64,000 nt of DNA from Candidatus Poribacteria bacterium (GTDB taxonomy: Bacteria; Poribacteria; WGA-4E; WGA-3G), in NCBI GenBank assembly GCA_965242965.1, contig OZ251518.1, positions 1,216,001 to 1,280,000 on the forward strand. The letters run 5' to 3'. The translations under genes and the position numbers were made by a program. Under the pieces are notes generated by a model, which saw nothing but the letters and a program-made list of their open reading frames with translations, made no database searches and had not been told where the DNA came from. Shown piece by piece: positions 24,569 through 46,677 of this stretch (position 1 is the stretch's first letter; each line of letters opens with the position of its first letter).

Positions 24569-24833
24569 TTGACAAAAAATTGCAAATAGCGTAAAATTAC
24601 CCTCAATCGCGCGGAAAACGCGCGCAAATTGCCGAAAAATTAAAAAAGTTTGACATTTTTCTCGATTTTTGCTAAAATTCGCAGAAATGTCGTGGAAAAG
24701 TCATTTTTTTTCATATTTTTGGAGAAAAATGTTGACAAAAAAATGCGAAATTTGCTAAAATAAAACCAGTTTTGGAATTTTTGGCGATTTTTCGCAGAAA
24801 AATGTTGACATGATTTGCAAAATTATGTATAAT
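24569..24833 (+). promoter_or_regulatory. Array of four tandem sigma70 promoters upstream of the caspase/FGE cluster
   Basis: TTGACA at 24569, 24650, 24732 and 24805, followed after 17/17/18/17 nt by TAAAAT, TAAAAT, TAAAAT and TATAAT. Confidence 0.85.
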
Positions 24834-25526
24834 TTTGGCAAAACGTAGTGGTAGGAGCGACTTCCGAATCGCGACTCACCACATTTCGCAAACCTGACAG
24901 AACGAGGAACGACAAAGTGAACCAGCGAAATATGAATCTCATGACTAAAAAGGTCGCGGATGACCTGCACGGGCCTCGCGGGACGCAGCACATTCGGTGT
25001 GCGTTCGGCCCCTTCGTCGCGCCGTCACGAGTTCCTATCTGTCTTGATACCGAAAAAGTAGATTCCCCCCCCCCCTACAGCCGCAGGGGTTGATGGGTTT
25101 TCACCTGACAGCATCGGGCACTTTCGCCCGTGTCTTGTCTTTAATCCCGCACGCGTTCATCGCGTTGCGGGCTATGTTTGTTGCATTGGGACTGTCCCGA
25201 TGCATGTTTTCCCTGCCATATTTCCGGTTGCATTCGCTTCCGTTGTTATCTCCTCTGTTGCTCTCTGTCGTTTCAGTCGGATATTTCCGCGCGCTGCCTG
25301 TGTTTGGGGCGGCGTGGTTGCGCGCGTTCGCTGCGCGTCCTCGCGGAGAAACGTTGAGAAGGAAAGCGATGGTGACTGGGCGTTGGCAGGTGTTTTTAAC
25401 TCGGTTCCGGGCAAAACACCTGATAGAGGGTTATGCCGAAAAATCCTGTCTACACAATCATTAACAATGGAACAGGCAGGCACAACTGCCTGCCACCGAC
25501 AACTCTGAAAACGAAAGGACGCACGC

Positions 25527-25997
25527 ATGAACCGATACCGAACTCTCTGCATCACTGTACTACTAGCAGCACTCGTCTGCTTCACAATCGGATGCCAGGC
25601 TGGGAAGAAGAATAGCGACGAAATCCCAAAGCCGCCGGAACCGAAATATCGCACCGACACCGTGCTGCTCATTGAATCCGATGGCTACGGCTATCTCGCG
25701 CGGGTGACAGAAGATACGCCGCCGGATGCAAAGGAAGTGCCAGTCAAATTCTTCTCCGCGGCACTTGAAAAGAAGGTTGGCAATGCTGTCGCGTCCGAGA
25801 ACATTCTGACAGCCCGAGAGGAACCGCCAGATGGCTGGGCATCGCGCCCCGTGTCAATTGACTACTTCAACGGCATCACGTGGAAACACCAAATGAATGT
25901 GCTGGAGTTGGAGGACGGCTATCTCCTACCTGAAGAGGTCAAGGGCAAACGGCGTGTGGAATTCGCGAACGTCCGTGTCCCCATCGCCGTGCATTGA
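25527..25997 (+). CDS. Lipoprotein consisting of a cluster-specific ~110-aa domain
   Basis: Lipobox FTIG|C; domain TVLLIESDGYGYLARVTEDT...RRVEFANVRVPIAVH. Confidence 0.8.
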   Translation: MNRYRTLCITVLLAALVCFTIGCQAGKKNSDEIPKPPEPKYRTDTVLLIESDGYGYLARVTEDTPPDAKEVPVKFFSAALEKKVGNAVASENILTAREEPPDGWASRPVSIDYFNGITWKHQMNVLELEDGYLLPEEVKGKRRVEFANVRVPIAVH

Positions 25998-26052
25998 AAC
26001 CACAGGAGAGCCCTCACAGGCGCGGCGCGCGCTAACAAAAGGAGACAATATC

Positions 26053-26751
26053 ATGAACCGATATCAAATCATTTTCGCATTCACCGCTGTGTTGCTAGGG
26101 ATTTTCCTCTGTTTCACAATCGGCTGTCAGCCGGACAAGAATAACGATGAAAAGCCGGTAGAAAAGCCGCCGGAACCACCACCGGAACCGCCGGAGGAAC
26201 CACCGCCGGAGGAAAAGCCACCGGAACCACCGCCGGAGGAAAAGCCGCCGGAGGAAAAGCCACCGGAACCACCGCCGGAGGAAAAGCCGGAGGAACCACC
26301 GCCGGAGGAACCACCGGAGGAACCACCGCCGGAGGAACCACCGCCGGAGGAACCACCGCCGGAGGAAAAGCCACCGGAGGAAAAGCCACCGGAACCGCTC
26401 TACAAAACTGGTACCGTGCTGCTCATTGAATCCGATGACTACGGCTACCTTGCGCGGGTGACAGAAGATACACTGCCCGATGCAACGGAAGTGCCAGTCA
26501 AATTTTTCTCGGCGGAGGTCCGGAAGAAAGCCGGGGACACCGTCAAGCCAGAGGATATTCTAAGGATTCGAGAGGAACCCCCAGATGGCTGGGCATCGCG
26601 CCCCATCGCCTTGGAGTACTTTGATGGTGCCACTTGGAAGCATCAAATGGATGTGCTTGAGTTGAAGGACGGCTATCTCCTACCTGAAGGAGTCAAAGGA
26701 GAGCGGCGGGTGGAATTCGCGAATGTCCGCGTCCCCATCGCCGTGCATTGA
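26053..26751 (+). CDS. Lipoprotein with a Pro/Glu-rich stalk and the cluster-specific C-terminal domain
   Basis: SD AGGAG; lipobox FTIG|C; ~80-aa PPEE/KPPE repeats; C-terminus is a close paralog of 25527..25997. Confidence 0.85.
   Translation: MNRYQIIFAFTAVLLGIFLCFTIGCQPDKNNDEKPVEKPPEPPPEPPEEPPPEEKPPEPPPEEKPPEEKPPEPPPEEKPEEPPPEEPPEEPPPEEPPPEEPPPEEKPPEEKPPEPLYKTGTVLLIESDDYGYLARVTEDTLPDATEVPVKFFSAEVRKKAGDTVKPEDILRIREEPPDGWASRPIALEYFDGATWKHQMDVLELKDGYLLPEGVKGERRVEFANVRVPIAVH
26146..26397 (+). repeat. Intragenic imperfect tandem repeat (CCGCCGGAGGAA-like) encoding a Pro-Glu linker
   Basis: Directly visible ccaccggaggaa/ccgccggaggaaaag units. Confidence 0.9.
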
Positions 26752-26767
26752 ATAGGAGAAAACAACG

Positions 26768-45028: not shown

Positions 45029-45070
45029 GTCTTAACACCCTTACCCCTTCTGATCGGTAAACCAATCAGA
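44897..45070 (+). other. DGR variable region VR3 plus hairpin variant (45049-45070)
   Basis: Colinear with VR1/VR2; TCTGATCGGT-AA-ACCAATCAGA with one mismatch. Confidence 0.78.
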
Positions 45071-45319
45071 CCGGTATGAAAAAGGGTAGGGACTTACATT
45101 AGCCCTAACGCCCAGGCCGGTGCATCTTTTGCGGACGAATCATGTGTTTACGCTGAACAATGACACAGCAGTGGAGATTCCTAGAAATCCAACGCGTTGC
45201 ATTTTGCGGAATCTGTAGATCTTCAACTATCCGTTGAACGACGCGGAAGTGGAAGAAATCTATCGCGAACATCGTCAGAATCTGTTAGAATGAAGGCGTG
45301 TCCTCTTTTCGTCGCGGAA

Positions 45320-45790
45320 CGTTCGCGGGGGACAGGCCCCGCGCTACGGGCTCTAGGTGAGCGAAGGCTTCACGGGGGTCTGTCCCCCGCGCTACGGGCT
45401 CGGGGCATCCGTTTTATCGTAGGGCGAGGGGTTTGCGATCTGTAGTTCGGGATCGCCTGATCCCGAACGGACATCTGTTTCACCGAACGTTCGCGGGGGA
45501 CAGGCCCCCGCGCTACGGGCTCGGGGACCGCCCGTTTCACCGTAGAGCGAGGGCCTGTCCCTCGCCGTGCCATTTGGAAAACGCAGTCCTCAGGGTCTAA
45601 CAGACCTAAAGCACCGTCCTTTTCAAAAGAGATCTCGCCGCTGCGAGAGAGAGAATCCTGAAACTCTTGTGAATCCTGCAAATCCTGCTTCAGACACCTG
45701 AGAGATCGCGGGGGACAGGCCCCCGCGCTACGGGCTCGGGGCAGCCGTTTTACCGAACGTTCGCGGGGGACAGGCCCCCGCGCTACGAAC
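45320..45790. repeat. REP-like cluster
   Basis: Multiple CGCGGGGGACAGGCCCCCGCGCTACG and GTAGTTCGGGATCGCCTGATCCCGAAC copies; partly duplicates 24250-24445. Confidence 0.88.
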
Positions 45791-45810
45791 TCAATCAGGA
45801 GGTTTCATCT

Positions 45811-46677
45811 ATGAAATATGCTATCAAAATGTTTACACAATCAACACATCGCGCCGCATACGCAATGGCGTTAACCCTTATCCTCACTCTCTGCACGGGA
45901 TGCGTTAGCGTCAGCACCGTCAGCAACGTAGGCAATACGCTCCTTGACGAAATCGGCGATGTCAACATCTTCACCGATGCAGAAGAACAGCAATTCGGTA
46001 AGGAATTTGTCGCACAACATGACAAGCAGGTCACGTTTCACACCGACCCGAGTGTCACCAACTATATCAATGACCTCGGGCAAACGCTGGTCCGCCACAG
46101 CAAGCGCAATGATATCCCTTATACATTCAAGGTGGTTGAAACGAAAGGAGTCAACGCGTATGCTGTCCCCGGCGGCTATATTTACGTGCATCTCGATCTC
46201 ATCAGGATGGCGAAGACAGAATCGGAATTGGCGGCGGTGCTCGGACACGAAATCGGACATATCGTCGGCAGGCACTCGATGAAGCGGCTTACCAAAGCAT
46301 ACGGCATCGAAATCCTAAAACAACTGCTTGTCAAGGAGGACTCCGGCGAGTTTAAAAAACTGGTTGCGGATGTGCTATCGGCGGGGTTGCTCTTTAAATA
46401 TAGCCGCGACGATGAACGCGAGTCGGATATGTATGGCGTGCAGAACGTCTACGATGCGGGGATATCGCCGGCGGGTGCAGGGACGTTCTTTGATACGCTC
46501 CGGGAATTGCAGGGACGTGAACCATCGTCGTTGGAGTTGATGTTGTCGACGCATCCGGCGAGTAGTGAACGCGCGCGGAATGTGCGCGCGCAAATCAGCG
46601 GTTTGCCGCCGAAGTCGGGGTTACGGGAGGATTCGTCGCGTTTCCAGCAGGTAAAGCGGCGGGTATCTGGCCGTTAA
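45811..46677 (+). CDS. M48 family metallopeptidase (probable lipoprotein)
   Basis: NAYAVPGGYIYV, ELAAVLGHEIGH, YSRDDERESD, LSTHP. Confidence 0.92.
   Translation: MKYAIKMFTQSTHRAAYAMALTLILTLCTGCVSVSTVSNVGNTLLDEIGDVNIFTDAEEQQFGKEFVAQHDKQVTFHTDPSVTNYINDLGQTLVRHSKRNDIPYTFKVVETKGVNAYAVPGGYIYVHLDLIRMAKTESELAAVLGHEIGHIVGRHSMKRLTKAYGIEILKQLLVKEDSGEFKKLVADVLSAGLLFKYSRDDERESDMYGVQNVYDAGISPAGAGTFFDTLRELQGREPSSLELMLSTHPASSERARNVRAQISGLPPKSGLREDSSRFQQVKRRVSGR

Follow-up and report, generated by a model that had tools for sequence, protein, structure and literature searches.

The window analysed here is a stretch of 64,000 nucleotides from a Candidatus Poribacteria bacterium (NCBI GenBank assembly GCA_965242965.1, contig OZ251518.1, positions 1,216,001 to 1,280,000 of the forward strand). 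It contains 14 co-oriented plus-strand genes (25527–46677), named G1 to G14. G1–G13 (25527–45028) are the genes of a 21.6-kb island and G14 is its neighbour. The island products carry export signals and are built from six modules: a caspase-like domain, a lectin head of the C-type lectin (CLec)/FGE-sulfatase type, DUF4384, PEGA, a VanY/M15-like domain, and a domain termed X. The island is the largest instance seen of a cluster type whose gene order is conserved in other Poribacteria. The source genome is labelled G000 and the genomes of relatives G002, G009, G031, etc.; L020 is the sequence of the same-genus genome G002 that holds the matching site. All feature coordinates are given in window numbering and on the plus strand, unless labelled G000 or L020. 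The features of the locus were:

24197–45796, strandless: island, 21.6 kb, delimited by blastn against the same-genus genome G002, which has 623 bp here
24248–24402, plus strand: left copy of a 155-nt composite repetitive extragenic palindromic (REP) direct repeat bracketing the island (repeat family D20)
25527–25997, plus strand: G1, lipoprotein (lipobox TIGC) with a short linker and an X domain; no Pfam family
26053–26751, plus strand: G2, lipoprotein with a Pro/Glu-rich linker and an X domain (repeat family D1, X alignment)
26768–28435, plus strand: G3, signal peptide, caspase-like domain with His and Cys present, CLec/FGE-sulfatase domain (C14 38.7 bits, FGE 223 bits)
29232–30434, plus strand: G4, signal peptide, VanY/M15-like domain (sub-threshold; VanY E 0.0062, 16.8 bits), X domain
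30475–31884, plus strand: G5, signal peptide, active-type caspase-like domain, DUF4384 (Pfam, motifs, folded model)
31986–33398, plus strand: G6, signal peptide, His-less caspase-like domain (GSG; Cys kept), DUF4384 (Pfam, motifs, tree)
33471–35117, plus strand: G7, signal peptide, caspase-like domain, CLec without a variable-region-type end (Pfam, motifs)
35437–37110, plus strand: G8, signal peptide, caspase-like domain, CLec (Pfam, motifs)
37377–38297, plus strand: G9, signal peptide, stand-alone pseudo-caspase (GFG, TDME; family alignment, profile, tree)
38364–39638, plus strand: G10, lipoprotein with PEGA, DUF4384, and X domains (Pfam, X alignment)
39818–40954, plus strand: G11, lipoprotein-like signal, N-terminal region of ~95 aa, CLec without a variable-region-type end (Pfam)
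41054–42973, plus strand: G12, signal peptide, caspase-like domain, PEGA, CLec without a variable-region-type end (Pfam, motifs)
43097–45028, plus strand: G13, signal peptide, caspase-like domain, PEGA, CLec (Pfam, motifs)
45370–45524, plus strand: right copy of the 155-nt direct repeat (repeat family D20)
45811–46677, plus strand: G14, exported M48 (BepA/LoiP-like) metalloprotease, backbone neighbour (Pfam M48, 109.8 bits)

When L020 was compared with the window by blastn, L020 3977–5000 matched window 23172–24196 and L020 5624–6514 matched window 45797–46687. The distance from the left flank to G14 is thus 623 bp in G002 and 21.6 kb in the window. The word island denotes this presence in the window against absence in G002, and insertion and deletion are indistinguishable. 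The two copies of the bracketing repeat were identical at 144 of 155 positions (93%), and the next best genomic copies reached at most 74%. The flanks of the island are housekeeping genes. G14 was rejected as a member of the system, as it adjoins the left flank in the island-less G002; its NCBIfam matches were all below the cut-offs. An earlier reading of the window, made by a model from the letters alone (the sequence-only reading), had drawn the system from 24569 to 46677. Its genes are real, no credible gene was found in 24569–25526, and G14 belongs to the backbone. The empty site of G002 (L020 ~5150–5560) consists of ~20 tandem copies of a 23-nt unit. In the window, REP repeats of the GTAG/CGCGGGGGACAGGCCCCCGCG type (families D2, D5, D7, D8, D12, and D13) occupy the spacers 28436–29231, 35118–35436, 45029–45810, and many others, both inside the island and around it. 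The promoter scan (11 sites, 11.8 expected) and the terminator scan (23 sites, 21.2 expected) were both at chance and carried no operon information. The tRNA and Rfam scans found none in the window and none in 23000–47500.

Across the 14 proteins, Pfam assigned Peptidase_C14 (PF00656) at E ≤ 0.01 to seven, FGE-sulfatase to six (G3, G7, G8, G11, G12, and G13), DUF4384 to three (G5, G6, and G10), PEGA to three (G10, G12, and G13), M48 to G14, and a weak VanY to G4; G1, G2, and G9 matched no family. With the family alignment added, there were eight caspase-type genes, five of which also carry FGE-sulfatase, two DUF4384, and one neither. The sequence-only reading had given the same counts. Its 14 co-oriented genes with export signals were likewise recovered (14/14 N-termini by a rule-based check), as were the caspase motifs, with exceptions in G6 (GSG) and G9 (GFG/TDME), and an unnamed domain common to four further genes, which is X in G1, G2, G4, and G10. 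The coexistence of active enzymes, pseudo-enzymes, and lipoproteins that it described in one array also holds in terms of motifs: six catalytic dyads are kept, G6 lacks the His and G9 both residues, and lipoboxes are present.

Export signals were called by rule and not by SignalP. All 14 N-termini had a basic n-region and a 12-residue hydrophobic core (mean Kyte-Doolittle 2.2–3.5), followed by AxA or a lipobox. A lipobox was present in G1, G2, G10, G11, and probably G14; in the others, AxA stands directly before the first caspase strand. G8, G9, and G13 can be read as substrates of either signal peptidase I or II. All island products are accordingly predicted to be exported. The lengths of the lipoprotein tethers differ: G1 has a short linker, and G2 has a Pro/Glu-rich spacer of ~85 residues, which is encoded by a tandem 12–15-nt repeat (26148–26405, family D1). 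In the passages of PMC7159879 cited here, PEGA is called peptidoglycan-associating.

Peptidase_C14 scored above the 21.4-bit cut-off in G3, G5, G6, G7, G8, and G13 (28.5–41.6 bits) and below it in G12 (16.1 bits). Weak Peptidase_C13 matches were obtained for G7 and G8. G9, lacking any Pfam match, aligns over its full length with the other seven copies and was found by the family profile at E 1.1e-89. The motifs Y(Y/F)xGHG and TD(A/T)C are present in six copies (G3, G5, G7, G8, G12, and G13). G6 has lost the His and kept the Cys, and G9 has neither. Among 50 aligned family members, His and Cys were both kept in 33, and the Asp two residues before the Cys was invariant (50/50), dead copies included. 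This Asp occupies the position that we take to be the S1-pocket residue of Arg/Lys-specific metacaspases and MALT1. For orthocaspases, the text cited from PMC6426788 reports cleavage behind basic residues and the existence of pseudo-variants. By analogy, the caspase domains of the island are probably Arg/Lys-specific as well.

The caspase domain of G5 was the one folded, using 50 family sequences (pLDDT 88.6, pTM 0.89). Foldseek matched the model to caspase-3 with E 3.7e-9, and the all-against-all aligner VIA gave caspase-3 at Z 18.7 (2.6 Å over 184 residues), caspase-8 at 18.6, MALT1 at 17.6, metacaspase-4 at 17.4, and the protease-like domain of c-FLIP (3h13) at 14.1. The model thus has the caspase fold, in line with the caspase-hemoglobinase fold that had been proposed from the motifs. 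At the level of sequence, the caspase profile found only weak caspase p10 matches in the PDB (E 0.15–0.9). VIA also matched the model to legumain, a peptide ligase, and GPI transamidase (Z 16.4, 15.7, and 14.9). These matches bear on an alternative in which the island would serve envelope maintenance, the caspase domains maturing or attaching envelope proteins as processing enzymes or transpeptidases, in the manner of the clan CD enzymes legumain and GPI transamidase, and the VanY-like proteins trimming stem peptides of peptidoglycan. The weak Peptidase_C13 matches fit this alternative, as do the VanY/M15-like and PEGA domains, which point to the wall, and the neighbouring G14, an M48 protease of the envelope-quality-control type. 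It is nevertheless improbable: a housekeeping wall role should not be absent from same-genus genomes or most of the phylum, hypervariable heads suit changing external ligands better than self substrates, and G14 lies outside the island.

The caspase subfamily is small (55 clusters in the 130–482 aa band, with one named Poribacteria caspase-family protein), and all eight copies of the source genome lie in the window. One to three copies were found in seven of the 30 relatives searched. The same cluster order occurs in at least seven other Poribacteria genomes (G009, G031, G077, G092, G093, G128, and G149), which span several genera and three families. In the shared order, the first place is taken by an X lipoprotein, a VanY-like-X gene, or both; an active caspase-DUF4384 gene comes next, followed by a second gene of the caspase-DUF4384 kind (in many cases with X added) and by caspase-(PEGA)-CLec genes. 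Two of the genomes depart from it: G093 has a DUF4384-VanY-like-X gene in place of the second caspase-DUF4384 gene, and in G031 the active caspase-DUF4384 gene is followed directly by caspase-CLec. G003, G007, G010, G013, G014, and G015 have a minimal version, in which the gene of a small X lipoprotein directly precedes that of a caspase of 375–390 aa. Searches of genome contigs added little: one with an alignment returned no relative, and one with G5 alone returned a single locus, from Candidatus Poribacteria.

A tree was built from 34 caspase domains, leaving out hits that covered fewer than 200 model positions. The His-less caspase-DUF4384 genes, G6 among them, formed one clade (6/6 without the His, support 100/99), next to a clade of seven active caspase-DUF4384 genes that includes G5 (support 98/93). 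G3, G7, G8, G12, and G13 fell into a caspase-CLec clade together with the dead G9. Active and His-less caspase-DUF4384 genes are adjacent in the window and in G009, G077, G092, G128, and G149, and the His-less clade is old and conserved. Dead paralogues kept beside active ones are also known from pseudo-orthocaspases, as described in the cited part of Klemencic et al. 2019 (PMC6426788), and from caspase-8/c-FLIP pairs. Unlike in those cases, the residue at the His position here is F, T, or S and that at the Cys position D or E, and the dead copies are predicted to be exported and are encoded next to their active paralogues, with which they may form heterodimers.

The X domain comprises ~115 aa at the C-terminal end of G1, G2, G4, and G10, with 31–78% identity to the copy in G1. 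Among 1.84 billion representative proteins, it had 41 matches, and in all 40 single-stretch matches it lay at the C-terminal end or within ~20 residues of it. Of 26 members scanned for partner domains, six had Peptidase_C14, nine DUF4384, three the VanY-like domain, one PEGA, and one a weak C13 match. Twelve of the 26 had no family, and the outlier P0094 had chaperonin matches that are probably spurious. Fused caspase-DUF4384-X proteins exist. X thus associates exclusively with the caspase, DUF4384, VanY-like, and PEGA set of domains.

X was modelled as a double five-stranded small barrel (pLDDT 94.4). The closest known structures are tandem Tudor domains: 53BP1 was matched at Z 7.8 (98–100 of 121 residues, 3.3–3.5 Å) and Crb2 at Z 5.8, and the next unrelated structures scored ~4.5. 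Identity to tandem Tudor and Agenet structures was 10–16%, and Foldseek gave E ~1e-2 and a TM score of ~0.5. Leads from the atlas to Tudor_3/Agenet clusters scored only 0.78–0.79, no Pfam family matched, and the X profile gave no meaningful match to PDB sequences. The predicted barrel has a modest likeness to the tandem Tudor of 53BP1 and Crb2 and the tandem Agenet of plants, from which X differs by its lack of membership in a sequence family, by its predicted export, and by its constant place at the C-terminal end or close to it. Its predicted location rules out chromatin reading. The conserved aromatic residues are Y21, F41, W69, W84, and Y97. The invariant Arg of the C-terminal VR(F/I)PI motif was considered as a cleavage site and provisionally set aside as less likely, since it lies in a confident strand of the model.

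In G4, X is preceded by the VanY-like domain, in which GYRSxQ and SKHQxGDA are conserved among relatives. G4 scored 16.8 bits against the VanY cut-off of 25. Among 13 relatives, VanY was found at E ≤ 0.01 in six (best 24.3 bits) and Peptidase_M15_3 in four; the matches of the profile in the PDB were at chance level (nanobody noise). The zinc-ligand motif of VanY/M15 is SxHxxGxAxD. Most members have a later His (FHV), which is Arg in G4. Catalysis by the VanY-like domain appears doubtful, at least for G4. In relatives, the stretch between the VanY-like domain and X is likewise a Pro/Glu-rich spacer, and its length varies.

The lectin heads of G3, G8, and G13 matched FGE-sulfatase (PF03781) at 220–226 bits, and sequence searches of known structures returned both a true FGE (5nxl, E 2.9e-44) and the lectin TvpA (2y3c, E 1e-18). 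The two catalytic Cys of 5nxl align to a Cys-free variable stretch in G3. Because the Cys pair is absent, a role as sulfatase-maturing enzymes was rejected, and the FGE-sulfatase-fold ends are best read as binding heads. In this they resemble TvpA of Treponema denticola (2Y3C), an exported FGE-fold lectin that also lacks the Cys pair and has a C-terminal variable region (VR) of a diversity-generating retroelement (DGR). Unlike TvpA, which has no protease and lies beside an intact DGR, the lectin here forms the C-terminal part of a caspase-like protease, in a genome that has lost the retroelement. The elements at the ends of the three genes were:

28303–28421, plus strand: DGR variable region of G3 (repeat comparison, template repeats of relatives)
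28456–28477, plus strand: hairpin with a 9-bp stem and a 4-nt loop, 20 nt after the G3 stop (-8.5 kcal/mol, z -4.7)
36978–37096, plus strand: DGR variable region of G8 (repeat comparison, template repeats of relatives)
37131–37152, plus strand: hairpin (9-bp stem, 4-nt loop), 20 nt after the G8 stop (-8.5 kcal/mol, z -3.6)
44893–45011, plus strand: DGR variable region of G13 (template repeats of relatives), with the downstream hairpin weakened by a mismatch (z -0.78)

A three-copy repeat occupies the final ~120 nt of G3, G8, and G13; its copies are 82% identical and lie inside far more similar surroundings. Between G8 and G13, 0 of 177 bases differ directly upstream of the VR and 21 of 119 inside it, so the three hypervariable ends noticed in the sequence-only reading are real. 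The adenine test was made with the template repeats (TRs) of two related genera (G004 and G009) and not with a cognate TR. Of the 32 columns that vary among the three VRs, 26 fall on TR adenines of G004 and 28 on those of G009 (Fisher p 5e-15 and 9e-16, respectively). Each VR mismatches 16–23 of the 31–35 A sites and 10–12 of the 77–81 other sites. In the cognate VR/TR pairs of the two relatives, 15/31 (G004) and 16/35 (G009) adenines are mismatched and no other bases are. Judged by the template adenines, the ends of G3, G8, and G13 are genuine DGR variable regions, written after the paralogues had arisen. G3, G8, G13, and a target near the remnant of the DGR cassette described below share a conserved stretch made up of the final ~45 nt of the gene, with the IMH-like 3' end of the VR, and the ~60 nt that follow; the G3 hairpin sequence also follows G8 and this cassette-proximal target and is a probable DGR target-recognition element. 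The FGE domains themselves are mosaic (27698–28284, 36343–36929, and 44311–44844): the first part of the G8 domain is 90–96% identical to G3, and the 177 nt ahead of its VR match G13 exactly; this pattern suggests gene conversion among paralogues.

Across the genome, 22 VR-like ends were found. Each of the 21 that have VR length is part of a coding frame, several of them in proteins with two or three FGE domains, and none is adenine-rich; the 22nd is a 39-nt partial match outside the 21 checked. Seven VR-like ends belong to three exported proteins of 951–1287 aa at G000:C1:3998450-4011258, which combine a different, CHAT-like Peptidase_C14 subfamily with PEGA and two or three FGE/CLec domains. 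Twelve other VR-bearing CLec proteins of the genome were scanned for domains. Dockerin was present in 4/12, one of which also had cohesin, and most of these VR-bearing proteins had signal peptides. Both features would fit lectin heads that directed extracellular proteases to glycoproteins of the sponge matrix, within the extracellular degradative apparatus of Poribacteria; the bacterium would feed on this matrix, and the DGR would once have broadened the range of substrates. Dockerin and cohesin typically occur in scaffolds of extracellular enzymes. The window also has sulfatase genes at 60586–63381, and Roux et al. [quoted passage not shown] Against feeding on the host matrix, the genes around the island are of the housekeeping kind, and none next to it encodes a transporter, glycosidase, or sulfatase. 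Conserved dead and His-less proteases, wall domains, and lipoprotein partners would be unexpected in a simple digestive set, and the distribution is patchy and dispensable. Taken together, we regard this explanation as unlikely.

The retroelement that wrote the variable regions could not be found. A search for the reverse transcriptase (RT) with PF00078 gave 0 matches in the 5.70-Mb, 94.7% complete assembly, and the same search was positive in 3 of 14 control genomes. The best match of tblastn with the DGR RTs of G009 and G004 against the source genome had E 0.32. An RT motif regular expression found none among 7081 open reading frames (ORFs), a crude test that was not relied on alone. No TR was present among the 21 VR-length matches, and the TRs of G004 and G009 found only VRs in the source genome. 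What remains is an avd ORF at G000:C1:5271341-5271757, ~4 Mb from the window, which is intact and has 82% identity to its counterpart in G009. It lies behind a cohesin-dockerin-CLec target with a VR (C1:5269764-5271757), and ~1.5 kb of REP and miniature inverted-repeat transposable element (MITE) repeats take the place where RT and TR sit in sister genera (remnant G000:C1:5269764-5273300). The VR of this target matches the VR of G3 exactly in its first half and departs from it in the second. The complete cassette, target-avd-RT-TR, is present in the related genera G009 and G004. In the two same-genus genomes, neither avd nor RT was found with the queries from relatives.

The writer (RT and TR) has therefore been lost from the source genome, unless it lies in the unassembled ~5%. 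Because only the target and the Avd remnant are left, the three VRs are probably frozen as fixed alleles. The earlier suggestion of DGR-diversified lectin ends thus stands for the past and probably not for the present. The locus shows DGR targets outliving their retroelement, and with its relatives it gives a decay series: an intact cassette in sister genera, Avd only here, and complete loss in same-genus genomes. Of 175 other genomes of the phylum, ~12 have a full-length RT of the G009 type; among the array-bearing genomes inspected, it was found only in G009 and G077. In G009, the three CLec ends of the array caspase protein show the adenine bias together with 4–10 other mismatches to the local TR. 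Since most related arrays sit in genomes without a G009-type DGR, the DGR is an occasional accessory of the array and not a defining part.

With its writer gone, the island might be a decaying relic, a formerly DGR-served gene family that drifts without function. The loss of RT and TR, the degraded hairpin after G13, and the loss of catalytic residues in two caspase copies (G6 and G9) would fit. We consider it extremely unlikely, as all 13 reading frames of the island are intact, with ribosome-binding sites and signal peptides, and the His-less copy belongs to an old conserved clade and is not a recent casualty. Metagenomic contigs tell against it as well. Those of three runs from two studies (X1, X3, and X5) had 0 differences in the unique parts of the island, except for one X5 piece (35381–36454) with 5 differences. 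No run contig bridges the repeated FGE/VR parts, so these contigs are uninformative on VR variation. A diverged relative, with ~2–8% of bases different over the compared pieces, is present in a sponge metagenome from a third study and is intact over those pieces.

Several published systems share parts of this architecture. Caspase-FGE-sulfatase fusions have long been known (33 sequences in the cited part of Asplund-Samuelsson 2012, PMC3501461), and caspase-CLec DGR targets have been described in cyanobacteria, mostly as cytosolic proteins (Vallota-Eastman 2020, PMC7517822, as excerpted). The cyanobacterial proteins also combine an N-terminal Peptidase_C14 with a C-terminal CLec ending in a DGR VR, and occur as paralogues and remote targets. 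The Poribacteria proteins differ from them in that every copy has an export signal, the caspase subfamily is a separate one (the 55 clusters mentioned above), the genes form a conserved cluster with X, VanY-like, DUF4384, and PEGA partners, and the DGR is missing here. In multicellular bacteria, DGR-diversified sensors are combined with caspase effectors (cited parts of PMC10907252 and PMC7159879). These conflict systems (Kaur et al. 2020, PMC7159879; Dore et al. 2024, PMC10907252) share with the island hypervariable CLec sensors, caspase-type peptidases, inactive enzyme paralogues, and some PEGA-type wall domains, as far as the cited passages go. Unlike them, the island has no STAND/MoxR NTPase, vWA, adaptor (EAD, Trypco), or TIR, and all of its products are predicted to be extracytoplasmic, in a lineage of unicellular sponge symbionts. 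The literature search, which did not extend to the supplementary tables of DGR surveys, found no description of an exported caspase-lectin array architecture; it found nothing joining Poribacteria with DGRs, and of the seven papers in which DUF4384 occurs, none concerns the domain itself, judged by title and abstract. The words caspase and sponge are absent from the main text of Roux et al. 2021. New here are the cluster order, the X family, the VanY-like-X gene, the pair of active and His-less caspases, and the DGR decay series.

Our preferred reading of the island is an envelope-anchored, capture-and-cleave protease network acting on foreign proteins, to which, as a whole, we assign a probability of roughly 45%. 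The island proteins would assemble in the periplasm or on the cell surface as an envelope-bound complex, with lipid anchors tethering it to the membrane and PEGA, the VanY-like domain, and perhaps X holding the proteins to the wall. Lectin, DUF4384, and X modules would bring protein ligands or partners to the caspase domains. The latter would probably work as dimers, with the His-less and dead paralogues (G6 and G9) as regulatory partners, and the bound ligand or partner protein would then be cleaved. The likeliest role would be to deal, at the envelope, with foreign proteins that keep changing, from phage, sponge host, or competitor, and not cytoplasmic cell-death signalling. Most discussion of bacterial caspase homologues treats them as cytoplasmic enzymes of cell death or signalling, and the DGR-diversified caspase-lectin proteins of cyanobacteria have mainly been described as cytosolic regulators. 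Here, a whole caspase-lectin apparatus appears to be exported, with a conserved order, protease pairing, a very rare domain, and wall modules. It offers a testable envelope protease system in an uncultured phylum of sponge symbionts, where recognition of host and phage are central questions.

Several observations weigh against the capture-and-cleave network. Protease activity, specificity, dimerisation, and all binding partners are what we infer from sequence and models, and the final site of the proteins (periplasm, outer membrane, or secreted) is not resolvable from sequence. The tandem-Tudor-like fold match of X is modest and silent on the ligand. The VanY-like assignment falls below the Pfam cut-off in all members, and the zinc-ligand motif is complete, final Asp included, in only two of 13. 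Half of the CLec ends (G7, G11, and G12; 3/6) show no VR signature. An array of the caspase subfamily was found in neither of the two same-genus genomes searched, and X was present in 25 of 176 genomes of the phylum and absent from 151, so the array is dispensable. The clustering in relatives that the sequence-only reading had set as a check accordingly holds for other genera and families and not for the two same-genus genomes searched. Finally, none of the 14 proteins matched a defence-system model of PADLOC-DB 2.0 at E ≤ 1e-3.

This last result also lowers the standing of a suicide or alarm defence outside the cytoplasm, in which a head would bind a phage component and the caspases would release VanY-like hydrolases, leading to lysis or wall remodelling. 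Such a defence would fit the island-like, patchy distribution. Parts of PMC7159879 and PMC10907252 describe cytoplasmic conflict systems to which the island runs parallel in joining sensor-like hypervariable heads with proteases, their pseudo-enzyme paralogues, and a domain resembling wall peptidases. It is very unlikely in our estimate: Pfam detected no NTPase, adaptor, or effector domain of conflict systems, the catalytic motif of the VanY-like domain is incomplete in most members, G4 included, and most arrays have no DGR.

A bolder version of the capture-and-cleave network would make the island an extracytoplasmic counterpart of apoptosome-like conflict systems. The hypervariable lectin heads, written by a DGR in genomes that have one, would then serve as antigen receptors on the outside, a ligand would join active and His-less caspases, and the X and VanY-like proteins would be cleaved. 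We find this improbable in its full form. If true, the island would encode an immune module of the recognition-then-proteolysis type that works outside the cytoplasm, X would be a new adaptor domain dedicated to it, and the envelope changes made by cleavage would amount to lysis, shedding, or an entry block.

Two further observations concern the window outside the island. One ORF at 19494–20720 combines a Trypsin_2 protease with a Phage_holin_4_2 four-helix membrane domain. At 8771–12488, on the minus strand, DUF4159, OmpA-domain, and vWA genes adjoin, with the look of a Bat-like envelope operon unrelated to the island.

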